Below are positions 4,774 through 16,340 of a DNA stretch of 30,986 nucleotides, piece by piece. A program made the position numbers and the translations under genes. This stretch comes from an uncultured Lachnospiraceae bacterium (lineage in GTDB: Bacteria; Bacillota; Clostridia; Oscillospirales; CAG-272), in contig CAZFQJ010000001.1 in the NCBI GenBank assembly GCA_964520875.1, positions 1 to 30,986 of the forward strand, written 5' to 3'. How positions within the stretch are numbered: the first letter of the stretch is position 1; each line of letters begins with the position of its first letter. The notes under the pieces were generated by a model, which saw only the letters and a program-made list of their open reading frames with translations, did no database searches and was not told where the DNA came from.

Positions 4774-6183
4774 ATGCCCGAGAGCGATATACTCAGCGGA
4801 GATCTGGATTCGGATATCGAAAAAATAGATAAAATAATGCGTACCTCGGAGAGCTTCGACCTCGTAAAGCGCGTATTGACTCCGAAAAACGGTCAGCGGT
4901 GCGCGTTTTTCTACGTTGCGGGATTCGCCGACGGTCAAACGGTGCAGGATTTTATGCGTTACTGCCTGACCTCGGACATTACGGAATTAAGGGACGATAC
5001 CGTACCCTATGTCGAAGCGTCGCGTTCGGAAGAGATACCGAAGATAATAAAGGGCATACTTGCCGGAATGACCTGCTTTATAGCCGAAGGACAAAAAGAA
5101 GCGCTCATCATGGATATGCGAAAAATGCCCGTCCGAGGGATAGAAGAGCCGGAAAACGACAAGGTCCTGCGCGGAGCGAGAGACGGCTTCGGAGAGGCTC
5201 TGCAGCCCAACGCCGCGCTAATACGCAGGCGTATACGCGACCCCAGCCTCACGTTTTCGGTATACGTAGTCGGAAAAGAGACCAAAACGGACGTCTGCGT
5301 CTGCTATATGGAAGGAAAGGCGGACAAAAAGTTCGTCGATACCGTTAAAGAGCAATTAAAAGAGCTAAAGCTCGATAACGTAAATTTTCACGGTGAGACG
5401 CTTACGGAAACGCTGATAAAAAAGAGGTGGTACAACCCCTTCCCCAAGGTGCGTTATACGGAACGCCCGGACGCCGCGGCGGCTTCTCTGCTTGAAGGAA
5501 GCGTACTGATACTGTGCGACAATTCCCCTTCCGCCATAATACTTCCAACCTCAATATTCGATTTTTTTCAAGAGACGGACGATTTTTGCTTTCCGCCGCT
5601 TACGGGAAGCTATCTGAGGATAGTGCGCTTTGCGGTATACCTTTCCTCTATATATCTCACCCCCGTCTGGTATTGGCTTATCGGAATGTCCGACTCGCTT
5701 CCGCCGTGGCTCGGGTTTTTACGCCTTTCACAGGAATCGGGAATACCGGTATTCTGGCAGCTGCTGATCATAGAATTTGCAATAGACGGAATGCGCTTAG
5801 CATCTCTTAACACTCCCGATATGCTCGGAAGCTCGCTGAGCATAGTAGGGGGACTGATACTCGGAGATTTCGCCGTCAGCGCCGGGTGGTTTTCTCCGGA
5901 CGTCATACTCTACATGGCGTTCGTAACGATAGCGAACTTTACTCAAACGAGCTACGAGCTCGGATATGCGGTGAAATTCATGCGTATGCTCATGCTCGTG
6001 CTCGTACACCTTATAGGCGGTATCGGGATAATTCTCGGCACGGTGATCGTTCTGTTCCTTATCCTGACGAACAATTCGATAAAAGGAAGCCGAAGCTATA
6101 TCTACCCGCTTTATCCATTCAACGGCAAAGCTTTGCTGAGTCTTATGATAAGACTGCGAAGGCGGCCCGATGAAAAAAAGTAA
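4774..6183 (+). CDS. Spore germination protein, GerA family (SpoVAF-like)
   Basis: Start at ATG 4774 after a GGAGG RBS; EEPENDKVLRGARDGF, RRRIRDP, PKVRYTERPD, DFFQETDD, IDGMRLASLNTP and IVGGLILGDFAV motifs. Confidence 0.9.
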   Translation: MPESDILSGDLDSDIEKIDKIMRTSESFDLVKRVLTPKNGQRCAFFYVAGFADGQTVQDFMRYCLTSDITELRDDTVPYVEASRSEEIPKIIKGILAGMTCFIAEGQKEALIMDMRKMPVRGIEEPENDKVLRGARDGFGEALQPNAALIRRRIRDPSLTFSVYVVGKETKTDVCVCYMEGKADKKFVDTVKEQLKELKLDNVNFHGETLTETLIKKRWYNPFPKVRYTERPDAAAASLLEGSVLILCDNSPSAIILPTSIFDFFQETDDFCFPPLTGSYLRIVRFAVYLSSIYLTPVWYWLIGMSDSLPPWLGFLRLSQESGIPVFWQLLIIEFAIDGMRLASLNTPDMLGSSLSIVGGLILGDFAVSAGWFSPDVILYMAFVTIANFTQTSYELGYAVKFMRMLMLVLVHLIGGIGIILGTVIVLFLILTNNSIKGSRSYIYPLYPFNGKALLSLMIRLRRRPDEKK

Positions 6184-8262: not shown

Positions 8263-8613
8263 TCATTTGTCGGTCTCTTCTACCGACAGATAATCGTAAT
8301 AGTCCTCAAGCATGTCCATGAGTTGTATGAAATACCCCTGGAGAAGTCCTCCGATCGCAAACCTAACGGCTGCGTTCTCCTCGGACGTATCCAGAACTGC
8401 GGGGATCTTCACCGTTACGTCGGTGGAATCCTCGTCGATAGTGTATTCGACGTCCGTCGCATACGCGACCTCGACCGTATTCACTATCAGCATGGTCATT
8501 GCCGAAAGCGCGGAACAGACTATGTCCTCTCCCGCGTCCGCGTAGCCGGAATGTCCGGTTTCTTTAAAACCGTAATACACGCCGTCCCGCTTAAAAAACG
8601 TGATCTTCGTCAT
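8263..8613 (-). CDS. prp: Ribosomal-processing cysteine protease Prp (YsxB)
   Basis: GHSGY...DIVCSALS motif; lies between rplU and rpmA. Confidence 0.93.
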
Positions 8614-8628
8614 ACCTTGAAGTCCGAA

Positions 8629-8940
8629 TTACGCGCCGATCTTTGTGATCTCGACCTTCGTATAAAGCTGGCGATGACCGATCTTCTTCTTCTCGTTCTT
8701 TTTAGCCTTGTACTTAAGAACATAGATCTTCTTGCCCTTGCCCTGCTTTACGACCTTAGCCTCAACGGAAGCTCCGTCAACGTAGGGAGCGCCTACCTTG
8801 AAGCCGTCGTCACCGGAAATAGCAAGAACCTTGTCAAATTTTACGGACGTATCTGCTTCAGCTTCTATCTTTTCGATGAAGAGAATGTCGCCCTCGCTGA
8901 CCTTGTACTGCTTTCCGCCTGTTTCAATTATTGCGAACAC
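8629..8940 (-). CDS. rplU: 50S ribosomal protein L21
   Basis: GTG start after a GAGGTG RBS; [13 protein letters not shown]...[15 protein letters not shown]. Confidence 0.97.
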
Positions 8941-8949
8941 GAAAAGCAC

Positions 8950-9055
8950 CTCACTTTCTTATATGCCATATACGGCAAAATCTCGCTGATTCGGGTAGAC
9001 GCGCCTCGACCGTACAGTCTCCTCGCGACGTTTGCGACCGTTTTCATGCGGCATT
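8950..9055 (-). promoter_or_regulatory. Structured 5' leader of rplU (probable L21 leader)
   Basis: About 100-nt UTR between promoter and RBS with several short stems (GCCG/CGGT, TCGC/GCGA, AGAC/GTCT, TGCC/GGCA). Its position matches the Firmicute L21 leader; not verified with a covariance model. Confidence 0.5.
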
Positions 9056-9059
9056 GATC

Positions 9060-9089
9060 ATTTTACCATATGCATAACCGATTTGTCAA
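9060..9089 (-). promoter_or_regulatory. Sigma-A promoter for rplU-prp-rpmA
   Basis: TTGACA-18 nt-TAAAAT with a TGn extension. Confidence 0.7.
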
Positions 9090-9257
9090 TACCGAAAACG
9101 TTTTTCTTTGCCAAAGCAATTGTAAATTTTTTATGACTCAGTCTCCCGCAAAATGAATAAACGTTTTAAATATTCGCTTTTTTGACATCAAAATTACAAA
9201 AATCGGGGCATTTATTTATAAATATTCGGAAAAAAGTCCGAATTTCCTCAAAAGCTA

Positions 9258-9286
9258 TTGACAAAAAACAGGAAATGTTGTATCAT
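9258..9286 (+). promoter_or_regulatory. Sigma-A promoter for the amino-acid ABC operon
   Basis: TTGACA-17 nt-TATCAT. Confidence 0.7.
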
Positions 9287-9328
9287 AGGGTCACTTATAA
9301 AATACGTTTCATCGAAAGGAAGTTCACC

Positions 9329-10201
9329 ATGAAAATGAAAAAGACACTCGCACTCGTTATGGCTATCATGATGATAGTCGGAACGATGGCATTCACCACA
9401 TCGTGCAGCTACAAGGGCTACGATTTCGATAACGACGACACGCTCGTTATGGTAACGAACGCCGCTTTCCCGCCCTACGAATACACCGATCCCGACGGAC
9501 CGTTCAACGGTTACGCCGGAATAGACGTTGAGATCGCAATGGAGATCGCAAAGCGCCTCGGCAAGACCCTTGAGATCAAGGACGTCGAATTCGACTCCGT
9601 TATCAGCGGTATAAACACCGGTAAGTACGATATCGCTCTCGCCGGTCTCACCGTAACTCCCGACCGCCAGAAGAGCGTAAACTTCTCCAACTCCTACGCA
9701 ACGGGCGTTCAGGTAATGATCGTGAGAAAGGACAGTGCTTACACAAGCATAGACGATTTCTTCAACTACGATGACGACGGCAACCCCGTTTCTCTTAAGA
9801 ATACCGACGTTAAGATCGGCGTTCAGAAGACGACGACCGGCGACATATACTCTTCCGACGACATTACAAACTTCGGATTCAACGAATTAAACGATGACGG
9901 AAGCGTCAAGGGAACCGACAGAGTCACCAAATACAACACGGGAGCGGACGCCGTCGAAGCTCTTAAGACCGGAAAGGTCGACGTCGTAATAATCGACAAC
10001 GAGCCGGCAAAATCCTTCGTTAATCAAAATTCCGACTCTATCCGTATCCTTGAGACTACCTACGCCGAAGAGGACTACGCGATAGCGATCAACAAGAAGA
10101 GCACCGTTCTTCTCGAAAAGGTAAACGAGGCTCTCGCGGCTATGAAAGCCGACGGAACTATCGAAAAGATAGTAAGAAAGTACATTCCCGTCGAAGAATG
10201 A
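9329..10201 (+). CDS. Polar amino-acid ABC transporter substrate-binding lipoprotein
   Basis: GAAAGGA RBS; signal peptide with lipobox-like FTTS-C26; TNAAFPPYEY, GIDVEIA, FDSVISG and YAIA motifs. Confidence 0.92.
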   Translation: MKMKKTLALVMAIMMIVGTMAFTTSCSYKGYDFDNDDTLVMVTNAAFPPYEYTDPDGPFNGYAGIDVEIAMEIAKRLGKTLEIKDVEFDSVISGINTGKYDIALAGLTVTPDRQKSVNFSNSYATGVQVMIVRKDSAYTSIDDFFNYDDDGNPVSLKNTDVKIGVQKTTTGDIYSSDDITNFGFNELNDDGSVKGTDRVTKYNTGADAVEALKTGKVDVVIIDNEPAKSFVNQNSDSIRILETTYAEEDYAIAINKKSTVLLEKVNEALAAMKADGTIEKIVRKYIPVEE

Positions 10202-10222
10202 TCTGTTAAAAATACTTTCGTT

Positions 10223-10260
10223 CAATGGCAGCGGCGATATAAATATTGCCGCCGCCATTG
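10223..10260 (+). other. Intercistronic hairpin between the binding-protein and permease genes
   Basis: CAATGGC-a-GCGGC-GATAT...ATATT-GCCGC-c-GCCATTG with only a weak T tail. Confidence 0.7.
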
Positions 10261-10297
10261 CTTTATGTAAATACTGAAAAATCAGAGGAAAAGCATA

Positions 10298-11029
10298 GTG
10301 GAATGGTTTAATTCTTTAAAAGACGATTTTATTCTCAATTTCGTTGAGAAGGCGAGATGGAAGATGCTCGTTCAAGGTCTCGGCAAAACGTTACTGATAA
10401 CCTTCTTTGCCGTGATCATAGGCGTTATCATAGGAATACTGATCGCCTCCGTCCGCACGACATACGACAAGAATAAGGAAAGCATGCAAAATAACGGCGG
10501 CGTAAAGTACCGCGTGATGCAGGTACTCAACGCCGTATGCAATCTGTATCTTACGGTCATACGCGGAACGCCGGTAGTCGTTCAGCTCCTCATATTCTAT
10601 TTCGTAATATTCACCTCGGTCGATAACGGCGTCATCGTCGCCATACTTGCTTTCGGACTCAACTCCGGAGCATACGTCGCCGAGATATTCAGAAGCGGAA
10701 TAATGTCGATAGACAACGGACAGTTCGAAGCCGGACGCTCTCTCGGATTCAATTACCCTCAGACTATGATCCATATCATAATACCGCAGGCGGTAAAGAA
10801 CGTTCTGCCCACGCTCTGCAACGAATTCATAGTTCTCCTTAAGGAGACGTCGGTCGCGGGATATGTGGGAGAAATGGATCTGACAAAGGCGGGCGACCTT
10901 ATAAGAGGCGCAACATTCTCCGCATTTATGCCCTTGATCGCAGTCGCGCTCATATATCTCACCGTGGTAGTGATACTCACCAAGCTCGTAAAGCTCCTCG
11001 AAAGGAGGCTCCGCCAGAATGAACGCTGA
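10298..11029 (+). CDS. Polar amino-acid ABC transporter permease (GlnP/HisM family)
   Basis: GTG start; [10 protein letters not shown] and [13 protein letters not shown]...[10 protein letters not shown] (EAA loop) motifs. Confidence 0.93.
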
Positions 11030-11780
11030 AAAAACAACGGAAAACTACGTAGTCGTAGAAGCAAGAGACGTAAAGAAATATTACAAGGGAGACAAGATAA
11101 AGGCTCTCGACGGCGTTTCCATGAAGGTCAAAAAGGGAGAGGTCGTAGTTATAATCGGTCCGTCAGGAAGCGGAAAATCGACCTTTCTGCGTTCTCTCAA
11201 TCTTCTTGAGATACCGACGTCCGGAAGCATACTCTTCCACGGAACGGACATCGCCGCAAAGCATGTTGACATAAACGTGCACCGTCAAAAAATGGGCATG
11301 GTGTTCCAGCATTTCAATCTTTTTCCGCATATGACCATATTAAAGAACCTTACTCTCGCTCCGATGAAGCTTCTCGGAAAGAGCAAGGAGGAAGCGGAAG
11401 CGAAGGCTCACGAGCTTTTGAAGCGCGTCGGTCTTGACGAACGCGCGGACGCATATCCGAGCCAACTTTCTGGCGGACAAAAGCAACGTATAGCGATAGT
11501 ACGCGCGCTCTGCATGGAGCCGGAGGTGATGCTCTTCGACGAGCCTACCTCGGCGCTCGACCCCGAGCTTGTCGGAGAAGTCCTTGACGTCATGAAGACG
11601 CTTGCAGGCGAAGGAATGACCATGCTATGCGTAACTCACGAAATGGGCTTTGCGCGCGAGGTCGCGGACAGAGTCGTATTCATGTGCGACGGAACGATAG
11701 CGGAAGAGGGAACTCCGGAGGAGATATTCACAGACCCGAAGAACCCGAGACTCAGACAATTTTTACAGAGCATACTTTAA
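11019..11780 (+). CDS. glnQ: Polar amino-acid ABC transporter ATP-binding protein (GlnQ family)
   Basis: [29 protein letters not shown] and VTHEMGFA motifs; overlaps the permease stop. Confidence 0.93.
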
Positions 11781-11784
11781 AATC

Positions 11785-11828
11785 AAAAAAGATCTCGCGG
11801 CGGAAGATATCCGCCGCGAGATCTTTTT
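11785..11828. terminator. Bidirectional terminator
   Basis: A6-GATCTCGCGGCGGA-agata-TCCGCCGCGAGATC-T5 between convergent genes. Confidence 0.88.
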
Positions 11829-11829
11829 A

Positions 11830-12612
11830 TTATCGCTCGCGAGCGCTTTTAAAACGGGCTATCAAAAGCGAGATCACGGCAAACATCATTACGAGTATAC
11901 TTATGAACTGAGAGGTAGAAAGACCGAATACAAAGCCGCGTATATCGTCTCCTCTCAAAAGCTCGTCAAAGAACCTGACAAAGGAATACATGATAAGATA
12001 TATATAAAACGTTCTTCCCTTCGCTTTACCGTTCTTTAAAAGAAGGTATATAACGAGCGCTATGCAAAGATCAAGGAACGACTCCAAAAGCTGAACGGGA
12101 AAACGCCTTACCTCTCCTATATCGGTCAATGTATTTCCGTGAGCGCAGAATCCGATATCGGATTCTATACCGTAGCAACACCCTCCGAAAAAGCACCCCA
12201 CCCGAGCAAAAGCATGAAAAAGCGGTGCGAGCAGAGCGAAATTATCGATATATATATCCTTCGGAAGCTTAAATATCCTAATATAGATAAGACCGAACAA
12301 AAATGCGCCGATAAGTCCGCCGTAAAACACCGAGCCTCCGAATATCCGCCCGAGAAGCGCTAAGGCTTCCCCAAGGCTCTCGGCTTTGAAAACAGACGGT
12401 ATATACCGTGCGTTGACCGCCCCGTACATAATGTGTCCGCCGACAAGCACGCCTCCCCCGACAAAAAGAAGGAAGAGTATAGCGTCATTATCGTCATGAC
12501 CGCTCTTTTTTATCCTTACACAAAAAACATAACCGGACACAAGTATACCGATCGCAGCCATAACGGCGTACATCGATATCTCTTTTCCGAATAAAACGAT
12601 TACAGGATACAT
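11830..12612 (-). CDS. lgt: Prolipoprotein diacylglyceryl transferase family protein (Cys-rich variant)
   Basis: Start at ATG 12612 after a GAGGTG RBS; GGSVFYGG, ARVGCFFGGCCYG, RFPVQLLE and RFFDELLRGD align with Lgt motifs; multi-TM. Confidence 0.82.
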   Translation of the reverse strand: MYPVIVLFGKEISMYAVMAAIGILVSGYVFCVRIKKSGHDDNDAILFLLFVGGGVLVGGHIMYGAVNARYIPSVFKAESLGEALALLGRIFGGSVFYGGLIGAFLFGLIYIRIFKLPKDIYIDNFALLAPLFHAFARVGCFFGGCCYGIESDIGFCAHGNTLTDIGEVRRFPVQLLESFLDLCIALVIYLLLKNGKAKGRTFYIYLIMYSFVRFFDELLRGDDIRGFVFGLSTSQFISILVMMFAVISLLIARFKSARER

Positions 12613-12673
12613 TTTCACCTCAACGAAAAAGCGGCGCTCTTGTGTTTTGCAAAAGCACCGCTTTCGATCTTTT

Positions 12674-13045
12674 TTACATCGACGCTTCCGCCGCCGCGCA
12701 TATGGTCGCCGCGCATGCAACCGTGCAGATAACGCCTATGAAAGCAAATATCGTTCCGATGATACCGAGGACCAAGCCCGCCGTTGCGATACCCGAAGGT
12801 CTTCCGGTCGCCGCGATCGACTTTTTCCTTCCTATCGCTCCGAATATGAGTCCGAGAAGAGCAAAAAATCCCGTAAATAAATTTACGACCGGGATCCATG
12901 CGCCGATCATTCCCAATATTCCGAAAACGAGTCCGGCGACCGACAGTCCCTTTCCGCTGCTTTGTGTTCCGTTCGATCCCGCGTTCGGTTGCTGATAAAA
13001 ATCCACGTTGCGGTTATCGTTCGGATCCTGAAATTGTCCGTTCAT
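12674..13045 (-). CDS. Small membrane protein, DUF4190-like
   Basis: N/Q/P-rich N-tail; repeated A(T)AGLV(F/L)GI motif (SVAGLVFGI, ATAGLVLGI); three hydrophobic segments; GGAGG RBS. Confidence 0.7.
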   Translation of the reverse strand: MNGQFQDPNDNRNVDFYQQPNAGSNGTQSSGKGLSVAGLVFGILGMIGAWIPVVNLFTGFFALLGLIFGAIGRKKSIAATGRPSGIATAGLVLGIIGTIFAFIGVICTVACAATICAAAEASM

Positions 13046-13074
13046 AACAGAACCTCCTAAAAGTAATATATTGA

Positions 13075-13101
13075 TCTTGTAGTTATTTTTTAACTACAAG
13101 A
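13075..13101. promoter_or_regulatory. Perfect 11-5-11 inverted repeat, candidate XRE operator
   Basis: TCTTGTAGTTA-ttttt-TAACTACAAGA, overlapping the predicted +1 of the leftward promoter. Confidence 0.7.
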
Positions 13102-13104
13102 AAC

Positions 13105-13133
13105 ATTATATGCCAATTCTAACTATTTGTCAA
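13105..13133 (-). promoter_or_regulatory. Consensus sigma-A promoter for the DUF4190-lgt operon
   Basis: TTGACA-17 nt-TATAAT, a perfect match. Confidence 0.85.
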
Positions 13134-13149
13134 TAGTTTTAGTTAAAAA

Positions 13150-13158
13150 TGTTATAAT
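13150..13158 (+). promoter_or_regulatory. Extended -10 promoter for the XRE gene
   Basis: TG-T-TATAAT about 24 nt upstream of the ATG; no canonical -35 at 17 nt. Confidence 0.55.
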
Positions 13159-13181
13159 ATTTTTAACGGAGGCGGAAATAT

Positions 13182-13454
13182 ATGAATATTGGTGAAAAAA
13201 TAAGAAACGCACGCGAAGATATGGATCTTTTGCAATCGGATATGGCAAGGCTCATTCCGATGAATCAATCGAATTATTCCAAAATAGAACGAAATATCCA
13301 AGAACCGAGCATAGAACAACTGAGAAGGATCTGTCAGATACTCCGTCTCGATCCGCGCTACCTTCTCGATCTGGAGCTTTACGAGACCGTTTCCGAAAAG
13401 GATCTCGAACTGCTGGGCGACGTAAAAAAGCTGATACGCAAATATTCGAATTGA
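13182..13454 (+). CDS. XRE family HTH transcriptional regulator
   Basis: IGEKIRNAREDMDLLQSDMA...QSNYSKIERNIQEPSIEQLRRICQIL; GGAGG RBS. Confidence 0.92.
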   Translation: MNIGEKIRNAREDMDLLQSDMARLIPMNQSNYSKIERNIQEPSIEQLRRICQILRLDPRYLLDLELYETVSEKDLELLGDVKKLIRKYSN

Positions 13455-13482
13455 AGCTCGGCAACGACCGAGCTTTCGTTTT
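13454..13482 (+). terminator. Terminator after the XRE gene
   Basis: AAGCTCGG-caacga-CCGAGCTT followed by TCGTTTT. Confidence 0.7.
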
Positions 13483-13637: not shown

Positions 13638-16340
13638 ATGGTATCAAAAGAAAAGAACTATTGCATAATCTCCCACACGCATTGGGACAGAGAGTGGTAT
13701 CTTCCGTTCGAACAATTCAGGATAAGACTCGTCGACATGATCGACCGTGTTCTCGAAATACTAAAAAAGGACGAGGATTACCGTTTTCATCTTGACGCAC
13801 AGACCGTAGTCCTTGAGGATTACCTTGAGATAAAGCCGGAAAACAGAGCCGAGCTCGAAGGCTTCATACGCGAAGGCAGACTTCTCGTCGGACCTTGGTA
13901 CGTTCAAAACGATTTTCACTTAACGAGCGGAGAAGCGACCGTAAGGAACCTGCTCATAGGCACCGATATAGCCGAAAGCTTCGGCAAATGCATGGACATA
14001 GGCTATGCCGCCGATCAGTTCGGTCTCATATCTCAGCTTCCGCAGATACTTAACGGCTTCGGGCTTGATACGTGTATATTCGGACGCGGCTTCGGCAGAG
14101 GCGAACGTCAGTTCTATTGGACATCGCAAAACGGAAGCAAACTGCTATGCGAGCACATGTTTGCATGGTATAACAATCTTCAGCGTTTGCCAAGCGATTC
14201 GGACGCGGCCCTTAAATTGCTCGTTTCCGCAGGAGAAACGAACCTCGGCAAGGGCAAAAGCTCCTCCGCGCTCCTTATGAACGGAGTCGATCACCTCGAA
14301 GCACAGGAGGATCTTACAGATATAATAAAAGAGCTTCAAAAGCGTTTGCCCGACGGCACGCGGGTATTTCAGGACACAATGCCCGAATATATGCAAAGGC
14401 TAAAAAGCGATATCGAAAAAGAAGGTCTTTCGTTAAAGAGCTACGAGGGCGAGATGCGCGATTTAGGCGCTGCGAACGTACTTACCGGCACACTCTCGTC
14501 TCGTATATATCTAAAGCAGATGAACACGCGTATACAGAGCGATATCGAACGCCGCTTCGAACCTTCATACGCGCTCCTTTCCGCTCTCGGAATACAAAAA
14601 TACCCTTCGGAATACGGAAGATATCTTTGGAAGACGCTCATACTTAACCACCCGCACGATTCTATCTGCGGTTGCTCGGTCGATCCCGTTCACGAGCACA
14701 TGGTCGACCGTTTCAAGAGGCTCGAAGAAAATCTTTCGGAGCTTGACGAGCGAGCGGACGAAGCGTATATGCGACATATAGACCGTTCTCTTATAAATAA
14801 AGACGATATAATGATAATGTGCGTAAACCGCACCCCGTATCCGTATAACGGTACGCTGACCGCAACTGTCGATATACTTACGAGCGAAAACAAGGACGGA
14901 TTTACGTTAAAGAACGCTAACGGCAAGGAAGTTCCCTTCGAAATAGTCTCGATAGACAGGAATGTCAGAAAGCGCATACTTTCTCCGATAAATCTTCCCG
15001 GAGAAAAAACGGTAGATCGCTATGTTTTACGAATAATGCCGGGAAAGCTTGACGGAATGACGCGCAAGATACTCGTCCTTTCCCCGAGCGAGAAAAAGCT
15101 CTCCGTTTGCGAAAACAAGAAGCGCGCACGCGTAAAGACCATACAAAACGAATACTTAAAGGCGGTCATAAATCCGAACGGAAGCGTAGATCTCACCGAC
15201 AAGATCTCGGGAAGGACCTATCGTTCTCTCCTGACCTTTGAGGACGACAGAGATCTGGGAGACGCGTATACGTATTTCGAATACGACAAAGGCGATCTCA
15301 TAACGAGCGATAACGCAAAGGCTCGCGTTTCCGTAGTTGAGGAAACGCCGTTCATCAGCTCGCGAAAGATAGCTCTCTCCCTTGACGTCGACCGAATTAC
15401 CGGCAAGGGACGGATCCCGATAGAGGTTGTCGTTTCGCTTACAAAAGGCTCAAAAAGGCTCGATGTTACCGTAACCTACGACAATTCATTAAAATACCAC
15501 CGTCTGCGCGTAAAGCTTCCCACCGGTATAAAAACGGATACAAATTATGCGGGTCAGCCCTACGATACCGTAGTAAGGAGCAAGGTCAGCGTATACAAAA
15601 ACGACTTTACGCACCCGAACACAGGCTTCTGCGGTATAGACGGAGACGGTCACGGACTTGCCGTGCTTAACGAAGGACTTTACGAATACGAGCACATGAC
15701 GGGAAAGGACGACGGAACGCTCGCGCTGACGATACTGCGAGCTACGGGACGCGTCACCGGCGGATACGGAGAACCGAACGAAAGCAACGTAACCGAGGGC
15801 TGGGACGCGCCGGCTTGTCAATCATTCGGAAAGAACACCGTCCGCCTTGCCGTTCTTCCCTATTCGGGAGACCGAACGGAAGCAGGCGTAGAAAAGGAAG
15901 CCGATCTGTTCCTTTCCGCGCCTTATACGGCGGTCCAACATTCCGACTATAACAAATTTCTCGGAGGAAGACCGTTCGTGCAATCGACCGACATTCCGAC
16001 GATATTCTACCGTCCGTTAGAGCGCCCCGAAATAAAGCTGCCGCTTGAGACCGCGGCTTTCGGGTTAGAACAGAGCGTAAAGAACGCCATGGCGCTGACG
16101 GCGTACAAAGAAGCCGAGGACGGAAACGGACAGATAATACGTTTTTTCAACACGACGCTTTCGGAGATCGATTTTTCCATTAAATTCGGATACAAGATAA
16201 AAGAAGCGTTCATAACGGATCTTGCCGAAAAAAGCTCCGTTCGGATCGCAGTTAACGCAAAAAAGAAGATAAAACTGCATGCGAAAGCAAAGGAGATAGT
16301 CACCGTAAGAGTGATATCGGAAGCAACAAAAGCGATATGA
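13638..16340 (+). CDS. Glycoside hydrolase family 38 alpha-mannosidase (MngB-like architecture)
   Basis: 900 aa; SHTHWDREWY, LDAQ, VGPWYVQND, ADQFG (nucleophile), NGVDH and NHPHDSICGCS motifs; no signal peptide. Confidence 0.93.
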   Translation: MVSKEKNYCIISHTHWDREWYLPFEQFRIRLVDMIDRVLEILKKDEDYRFHLDAQTVVLEDYLEIKPENRAELEGFIREGRLLVGPWYVQNDFHLTSGEATVRNLLIGTDIAESFGKCMDIGYAADQFGLISQLPQILNGFGLDTCIFGRGFGRGERQFYWTSQNGSKLLCEHMFAWYNNLQRLPSDSDAALKLLVSAGETNLGKGKSSSALLMNGVDHLEAQEDLTDIIKELQKRLPDGTRVFQDTMPEYMQRLKSDIEKEGLSLKSYEGEMRDLGAANVLTGTLSSRIYLKQMNTRIQSDIERRFEPSYALLSALGIQKYPSEYGRYLWKTLILNHPHDSICGCSVDPVHEHMVDRFKRLEENLSELDERADEAYMRHIDRSLINKDDIMIMCVNRTPYPYNGTLTATVDILTSENKDGFTLKNANGKEVPFEIVSIDRNVRKRILSPINLPGEKTVDRYVLRIMPGKLDGMTRKILVLSPSEKKLSVCENKKRARVKTIQNEYLKAVINPNGSVDLTDKISGRTYRSLLTFEDDRDLGDAYTYFEYDKGDLITSDNAKARVSVVEETPFISSRKIALSLDVDRITGKGRIPIEVVVSLTKGSKRLDVTVTYDNSLKYHRLRVKLPTGIKTDTNYAGQPYDTVVRSKVSVYKNDFTHPNTGFCGIDGDGHGLAVLNEGLYEYEHMTGKDDGTLALTILRATGRVTGGYGEPNESNVTEGWDAPACQSFGKNTVRLAVLPYSGDRTEAGVEKEADLFLSAPYTAVQHSDYNKFLGGRPFVQSTDIPTIFYRPLERPEIKLPLETAAFGLEQSVKNAMALTAYKEAEDGNGQIIRFFNTTLSEIDFSIKFGYKIKEAFITDLAEKSSVRIAVNAKKKIKLHAKAKEIVTVRVISEATKAI

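Follow-up and report, generated by a model that had tools for sequence, protein, structure and literature searches.

A cysteine-signature Lgt paralog linked to a DUF4190 membrane protein with a cysteine ladder: a candidate S-lipidation module of gut and rumen Clostridia

Results

We analysed a stretch of 30,986 nucleotides (hereafter the window) from an uncultured Lachnospiraceae bacterium (GenBank assembly GCA_964520875.1, contig CAZFQJ010000001.1), in which a small module encodes a paralog of the lipoprotein-modifying transferase Lgt with a cysteine-rich signature and, next to it, a membrane protein that is its candidate substrate. On the minus strand the partner gene comes first (12674..13045; P0002, 123 amino acids, a DUF4190-type protein with three predicted helices and a ladder of cysteines, C107, C111 and C116), followed by the Lgt-like gene (11830..12612; P0001, 260 amino acids), which was assigned by its PF01790 match, fold and residues. 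A gene for an XRE-family helix-turn-helix (HTH) regulator is divergent on the plus strand (13182..13454; P0003, 90 amino acids). The partner and Lgt-like genes lie behind a sigma-70-type promoter (13133-13105, minus strand; TTGACA-17-TATAAT) that matches the consensus at 12 of 12 positions. A bidirectional intrinsic terminator with a 19-bp stem (11786..11828) ends both the Lgt-like gene (minus strand) and an ABC ATPase gene (plus strand), and a terminator-like hairpin is found 3' of the XRE gene (13453..13476, plus strand). The Lgt-like protein carries the motifs GGSVFYGG, ARVGCFFGGCCYG, RFPVQ and RFFDELLR, while the C-terminal motif of the partner is IGVICTVACAATICAAAEASM. These motifs, the perfect promoter and the flanking terminators had all been described in the original prediction, made from the sequence letters of the window, and each was found as described. 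The start of the Lgt-like gene was placed at the ATG at 12612, behind a GAGGTGA ribosome-binding site, and the upstream TTG at 12720, given in a program-made list of open reading frames (ORFs), was rejected. The GC composition across the cassette showed no clear anomaly.

P0001 matched PF01790 with 127.4 bits (gathering cut-off 24.9) over profile positions 2-239 of 240 and missed the NCBIfam equivalog cut-offs (TIGR00544, 81.7 versus 118.9; NF000778, 123 versus 334). An AlphaFold2 model based on an alignment of 24 family members (predicted local distance difference test, pLDDT, 87.6; predicted template modelling score, pTM, 0.81) retains the seven-helix Lgt fold, and the sole Foldseek match below 1e-3 among solved structures was E. 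coli Lgt 5azb (E 1.6e-9, TM 0.76). Equivalents of the E. coli residues Y26, D129, R143, G154, Y235, R239, E243 and R246 are invariant or nearly so in the enzyme family; in P0001 numbering, R137, R213 and G148 (R143, R239 and G154 of E. coli) are invariant in the 24 members and Y15 (Y26) is kept in at least 90%. In E. coli Lgt, R143 and R239 make up the proposed catalytic pocket, E151 forms a hydrogen bond with the head-group glycerol of phosphatidylglycerol, the signature motif was proposed to act as a selectivity filter for the donor lipid and the active site is located at the outer face of the membrane (PMC4728403). Within the signature of the window family N146, E151 and L152 are replaced by cysteine and N149 by glycine, and C140, C145 and C146 of P0001 (CxxxxCC) are invariant across the family. 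Thus the part that selects the donor is altered, whereas the transfer centre is retained.

That GCC-type variants occur elsewhere, as had been supposed, agrees with published data: distantly related Lgts have N146 and E151 “replaced by C or C/D”, MSMEG_5408 of M. smegmatis carries Y26H and N146C with an activity presumed to be low, and the Lgt of L. interrogans (N146C and a cysteine at W153) partially complements E. coli (PMC13251419). The partial activity of the latter indicates that a Cys signature is compatible with Lgt chemistry. The tyrosine at the position of E. coli His103, on the other hand, had been listed among the distinguishing features of the window copy and does not set it apart. 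It is a trait of the phylum, as Firmicutes Lgts generally have Y at this position (PMC13251419), and the canonical copy of the same genome shares it (GGLAIYGG).

This canonical copy was found by searching the source genome (1.6 Mb, 198 contigs, 95% complete), in which a second PF01790 gene (249 bits) with the canonical signature GRWGNFCNGEAFG adjoins folD on contig 22. The two copies are 26% identical and, with a canonical Lgt encoded on another contig, the window copy is an accessory paralog and not the housekeeping enzyme, just as predicted from the window. The genome encodes one LspA. Furthermore, the paralog profile gave a match of at least 130 bits in 30 of 151 genomes sampled from the same order, 29 of which carry a second, canonical-type match; the 7 other genomes from the family of the window all lack the paralog. 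On these counts the paralog is accessory and patchily distributed. Carrier loci, of which well over a hundred were sampled, come from gut, rumen and termite-gut bacteria, mostly Clostridia, and at least two carriers are cultured, namely Ruminococcaceae bacterium AB4001 and Monoglobus pectinilyticus, the latter with the enzyme-partner pair (UL127_RS08035/RS08030) in swapped order. Carriage by plasmids or phages was considered and rejected, since tblastn gave weak matches alone (31-41% identity), and the module is thus not a known mobile element; the Monoglobus pair itself was turned up by the plasmid search. As a separate observation, 16 of the 151 genomes, several of them 99-100% complete, gave no Lgt-family match with the paralog profile A2 (PF01790 was not searched there), and either this first-look filter missed canonical Lgts or some of these Clostridia are devoid of Lgt.

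The partner P0002 scored 28 bits against DUF4190 (PF13828; Pfam cut-off 35). A DUF4190 match was obtained for 35 of 39 aligned partners (best E 7e-15), the nearest Atlas clusters are DUF4190, and the wider superfamily is very large, with 27,787 clusters (50% identity) at E 1e-3 or better. In the model of the partner the predicted helices span residues 32-48, 52-80 and 85-122, the cysteines lie within the continuous third helix and the ladder is embedded in Ala, Val, Leu and Thr as a continuation of this helix. Among 71 partners C107 is nearly invariant and more cysteines follow with a period of three residues, at +4, +7 and +10; this CxxCxxC ladder is the conserved feature of the partner. The order of elements is helix, cysteines and then an acidic tail, and the N-terminal part is conserved, whereas the C-tails vary in length and sequence and contain no conserved core. 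Lysine and arginine amount to 0.245 per residue in the loop between helices 2 and 3, to 0.006 in the turn between helices 1 and 2 and to 0.010 in the C-tail. By the positive-inside rule, the ladder and the tail are therefore predicted to face outward, on the side of the Lgt active site. Unlike in a bacterial lipoprotein precursor, the cysteine sits after the third helix and not at the end of an N-terminal signal peptide. Moreover, a strict lipobox ([LVI][ASTVI][GAS]C) precedes the first cysteine in 5 of the 71 partners and any ladder cysteine in 8, so the TVA-C of the window partner, earlier read as lipobox-like, is coincidental.

Linkage of the two genes was assessed in both directions. The enzyme-seeded scan used the enzyme motifs and one genome per species; at least 583 loci were confirmed and the best 80, almost all from gut or rumen Clostridia, were taken. 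Of 79 loci, 62 have a P0002 homologue directly upstream on the strand of the enzyme gene and 2 (L028, L047) have one downstream, while in L071 and L077 a recognisable partner had been missed by phmmer. Two loci end at a contig edge, and the partner adjoins the enzyme in approximately 66 of the 77 assessable ones. All-against-all clustering of the ORFs of the 80 loci returned two conserved gene clusters only, the enzyme and the partner; no protease, exporter, radical SAM enzyme or immunity gene was conserved near the pair, and the flanking contexts differ widely between linked loci. The partner-seeded scan was independent, querying a different collection (metagenomes) with partner sequences. 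Here an R.GCF..GCC Lgt was encoded directly downstream of 44 of 44 partners with at least two cysteines after helix 3 and likewise of 4 of 4 partners with a single cysteine there, whereas none of the 32 DUF4190 matches without post-helix cysteines was followed by such a gene. In addition, the paralog is adjacent to 22 of the 26 best-scoring partner matches in the same order.

The cysteines themselves follow the linkage. Linked partner ORFs have a cysteine at the C107 column in 70 of 75 cases and at least two cysteines within 16 residues in 69 of 75; the corresponding counts for unlinked DUF4190 ORFs (44, from 30 loci of the same order) are 1 and 0. Among the best 146 library representatives of the partner, 134 possess at least two cysteines. 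The proposed tie between the paralog and the C-terminal cysteines of its partner is thus conserved and specific. The suggested co-occurrence of GCC-type Lgt genes with both DUF4190 and XRE genes held for DUF4190 (approximately 66/77; 48/48 versus 0/32) and failed for XRE (approximately 5/64). In a FastTree phylogeny of 125 Cys-signature enzymes the 105 linked ones are spread over deep branches, a sampling biased by the fact that part of the enzyme set was fetched via the partner, and the 20 unlinked enzymes fall mostly into a few separate subclades. Near-perfect linkage in both directions, across deep branches and with varied flanks, is hard to explain without a functional tie, and on this comparative evidence we consider a functional coupling of the enzyme and partner genes close to certain. 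Eight longer proteins came up as possible enzyme-partner fusions; none contains DUF4190 and they look like merged gene calls. We found no literature linking Lgt with DUF4190, the DUF4190 mention retrieved being an unrelated preprint. Both the enzyme family and the Cys signature have been described before, while the DUF4190 partner with its cysteine ladder, the cysteine-linkage rule and the intercistronic hairpin described below were not found in the searched literature.

The same linkage bears on the very unlikely explanation that the paralog is simply a second Lgt, redundant or specific to certain conditions, that serves ordinary lipoproteins like the extra copies of Streptomyces, mycobacteria or the B. 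cereus group, with DUF4190 as an unrelated neighbour. Two copies of lgt are present in about 1,300 genomes and Cys-signature Lgts can act on lipoproteins, e.g. in L. interrogans (PMC13251419), and the fold and core of the window enzyme are intact. However, an unrelated neighbour would hardly be expected to produce a linkage that is near-perfect both ways (48/48 versus 0/32 for the gene, 70/75 versus 1/44 for the cysteine) and that persists over deep enzyme branches and very different flanks.

The gap between the partner and Lgt-like genes measures 61 nt in the window and holds a strong terminator-like hairpin followed by a U run (12627..12665, minus strand; folding free energy, dG, -29.3 kcal/mol, z -4.6). 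No promoter-like site was found before the Lgt-like gene in the window. A hairpin with a T run lies between partner and enzyme in 45 of 64 loci and in 20 of the 67 gaps used as controls (30-200 nt, same strand, from the same loci), and a dG of -15 or lower was calculated for 39 of 64 versus 9 of 67. The hairpin recurs without conservation of its sequence, and in the window it probably lowers the expression of the enzyme relative to the partner. Furthermore, two or three tandem partner genes precede a single enzyme gene in six loci (L013, L024, L027, L042, L043, L053). Tandem partners and hairpin together fit an abundant product made with catalytic amounts of enzyme, and fit a fixed 1:1 complex less well.

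An arrangement of this kind could also belong to a peptide operon, in which lipidation would be followed by cleavage of the signal peptidase II type before the modified cysteine; a short lipopeptide would be freed, the C-tail being the product and the three-helix part a membrane-bound leader. The layout is leader-like, with its conserved N-terminal part and variable C-tail, the tandem partner genes and the hairpin behind the “precursor” gene recall many peptide operons, a single LspA is at hand in the genome, and in 32 of 71 partners a small residue (S, A or G) stands before the first cysteine. Nevertheless, isoleucine is the commonest residue at that position, the strict lipobox that LspA needs occurs in just 5-8 of 71 partners, the tails lack a conserved core and, with two conserved clusters only, no protease, exporter or immunity gene accompanies the pair. 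We regard this scheme as very unlikely.

Stoichiometry is also relevant to the main rival, in which enzyme and partner would form a stable complex and the partner would not accept a lipid: CxxxxCC of the enzyme and CxxCxxC of the partner would together make a dithiol/disulfide relay with redox activity, or a site for a metal or another cofactor, at the outer face, or the partner would serve as a regulator or pseudo-substrate. Cysteines were gained in both proteins and are predicted on the same side of the membrane, and a single lipidation needs just one cysteine. The CxxCxxC spacing of the ladder is one typical of metal or cluster ligands. Moreover, a disulfide between N146C and the second cysteine was suggested for the L. 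interrogans Lgt (PMC13251419). Against such a complex, the Cys signature of the enzyme also occurs in subclades that have no DUF4190 partner, four linked partners have a single cysteine, the tandem partners and the hairpin fit an unequal stoichiometry, the ladder continues a helix in Ala, Val, Leu and Thr, unlike known cluster-binding loops, and the catalytic arginines are retained. Taking both sides together, we consider it unlikely.

Upstream of the partner gene, the control region of the window contains a perfect 11-5-11 inverted repeat (13075..13101) just downstream of the leftward -10 box, between this box and the ribosome-binding site of the partner, which is a candidate XRE operator. 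TAACTA/TAGTTA half-sites are also present at 13120-13125 and 13140-13145, and of the 8 TAACTA hexamers in the window, 4 are packed into 66 bp of the divergent intergenic region; judged from these repeats, 13075-13160 is plausible as a multi-site operator for the XRE protein. The XRE protein matched HTH_3 (PF01381) with 40.6 bits, against a cut-off of 23. The original prediction had included XRE in a self-contained cassette. By phmmer and ORF inspection, approximately 5 of 64 loci carry a divergent HTH gene upstream and 2 carry ribbon-helix-helix-like genes, and we rejected XRE as a module member in favour of a local add-on. The flanks of the cassette (8323-11780 and 13638-16340) encode an amino-acid ABC transporter (solute-binding protein, permease and ATPase) and a GH38 alpha-mannosidase and are unrelated to the module. 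The Monoglobus pair (L113) also adjoins an amino-acid ABC transporter, which is probably a coincidence.

Several variant forms of the partner and of its neighbourhood were noted during the scans. A compact form of approximately 90 amino acids, with no N-tail and with CTVxC (P0168), is recorded from Treponema primitia, and many similar proteins are encoded on the metagenome contigs L122-L151, where their gene is always followed by the Lgt-like gene. On the tree, the enzymes found with the compact form branch inside the Clostridia clade, and a transfer between phyla is therefore possible. The Ga0099364 data set, one of the sources of L122-L151, also supplied the termite-gut Oscillospiraceae bin of locus L028. 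In three genomes of the genus g57 (G060, G082 and G136; loci L083, L089 and L112) partner-like DUF4190 proteins (80-91 bits) have an N-terminal zinc ribbon and neither a cysteine ladder nor an Lgt-like neighbour. Two of these genomes, G060 and G082 (96-97% complete), gave no match to the profile A2, which detects canonical Lgts in most other genomes.

Discussion

We propose that the Cys-signature Lgt paralog is dedicated to the S-lipidation of its co-encoded DUF4190 partner, a reading that we regard as evenly balanced between being right and being wrong. The module would then consist of an abundant small membrane protein and its own modifying enzyme. At the outer face of the membrane the paralog would transfer a lipid group (diacylglyceryl being the most likely) from a phospholipid of the membrane to a protein thiol; as the Lgt fold and the arginine-centred core are kept, we infer that lipid transfer is still performed. 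The substrate would be the DUF4190 partner and not an ordinary lipobox prolipoprotein. Its basic cytoplasmic loop, a helix of approximately 21 residues and a cysteine at the outer leaflet would mimic the geometry of a lipoprotein signal peptide in a polytopic context and in the absence of a lipobox, and S-lipidation would take place on one or several of the CxxCxxC ladder cysteines. Since the residues that changed belong to the signature that selects the head group, the donor lipid may differ from phosphatidylglycerol. A leaky intergenic terminator would keep the partner in excess over the enzyme, and in the source genome on/off control may be added by the divergent XRE repressor, whose operator would cover the start of transcription.

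Several points weigh against dedicated S-lipidation. The argument is drawn wholly from comparative genomics and models. In E. coli Lgt, N146 is an essential residue and the head group of phosphatidylglycerol is bound by E151 (PMC13251419, PMC4728403); both are cysteines here, and thus the chemistry may differ or the activity may be low. The conserved period-3 ladder is not explained by one lipidation. Cys-signature subclades devoid of a DUF4190 partner (G009, G095, G075 and the group of L044, L058, L062 and L074) indicate that the cysteines of the enzyme are not tied to this partner. Furthermore, related genomes are not independent samples for the linkage counts, the aligned-column test (70/75 versus 1/44) is biased by a partner profile derived from linked members, and the hairpin could instead mark two separate transcription units.

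Other neighbours were seen next to Cys-signature enzymes of this kind. At L117:1495-3400 (G101:C37) a Cys-signature Lgt-like gene (RVGCYFGGCCYG) has no DUF4190 partner and abuts (stop at 2247, next start at 2249) a downstream gene for the 384-amino-acid protein P0134, whose first membrane helix is followed by IISCVTC; P0134 may be a different client with the same feature of a helix end plus CxxC. In L044, L058, L062 and L074 (approximately 4790-5480) the Lgt-like gene is followed, with overlapping stop and start, by a gene for a protein of 125-127 amino acids that combines membrane helices with a treble-clef zinc ribbon (DUF2116) at its N-terminus, and a DUF378 protein is encoded next.

Lgt is regarded as an enzyme with one job, the transfer of diacylglyceryl to the lipobox cysteine of secreted prolipoproteins. 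To our knowledge, no role has been assigned to the divergent extra Lgt copies of many genomes, and we know of no enzyme identified as lipidating lipobox-less cysteines beside a membrane helix, of the MYXO-CTERM type. The module offers a minimal test case for both, with one enzyme, one small candidate substrate and a near-perfect rule by which a partner has post-helix cysteines if and only if the enzyme gene adjoins it. If dedicated S-lipidation were true, the module would provide the large and unexplained Cys-signature branch of Lgt with its first defined enzyme-substrate pair and DUF4190, a very large family of no known function, with its first functional handle. Lgt-type enzymes would then be able to recognise a helix end plus a cysteine without a lipobox, perhaps with a donor lipid other than phosphatidylglycerol, which would widen the substrate range of Lgt and give the abundant Clostridia of gut and rumen a lipidated membrane protein of a new kind. 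The broader claim, that a polytopic protein is S-lipidated, possibly at several ladder cysteines, by a dedicated bacterial Cys-signature Lgt system, is put forward more tentatively, at somewhat short of an even chance.

Comparison with known systems

The window enzyme has the fold and core residues of E. coli Lgt (PDB 5AZB/5AZC; PF01790), from which it differs by N146C, E151C, L152C and N149G and by its accessory and patchy occurrence. Similarly, the partner resembles Lgt substrates in having a candidate acceptor cysteine where a hydrophobic helix, preceded by basic residues, reaches its outer end, whereas the N-terminal signal peptide and the lipobox of lipoprotein substrates are absent from it. 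Small polytopic membrane proteins with cysteine clusters at helix ends, such as IFITM/dispanins and tetraspanins, are S-acylated by DHHC enzymes. With its disordered N-tail and its helix-end cysteine cluster the partner is analogous to these proteins, with no homology claimed; DHHC S-acylation differs in enzyme family, donor and bond type and takes place on the cytoplasmic side.

Among bacterial systems, the MYXO-CTERM signals processed by myxosortase likewise have, at the outer face, an invariant cysteine beside a membrane helix and no lipobox, and an “Lgt-like acyl-transferase” was proposed for this cysteine and is unproven (PMC11980579; bioRxiv 10.1101/2023.06.07.544157). The order of elements there is cysteine, helix and basic cytoplasmic tail, unlike that of the partner, and the helix is removed by a CPBP protease; the clients are large secreted proteins. 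No such protease is conserved with pairs of the window type. The window enzyme belongs to the published N146C/E151C branch and shares with the published Cys-variant Lgts, several of which are second copies, the cysteine at N146 (and at E151) (PMC13251419). No partner protein was described for those enzymes, whereas the window family is distinguished by its CxxxxCC, the retained Y26 and its tie to DUF4190.

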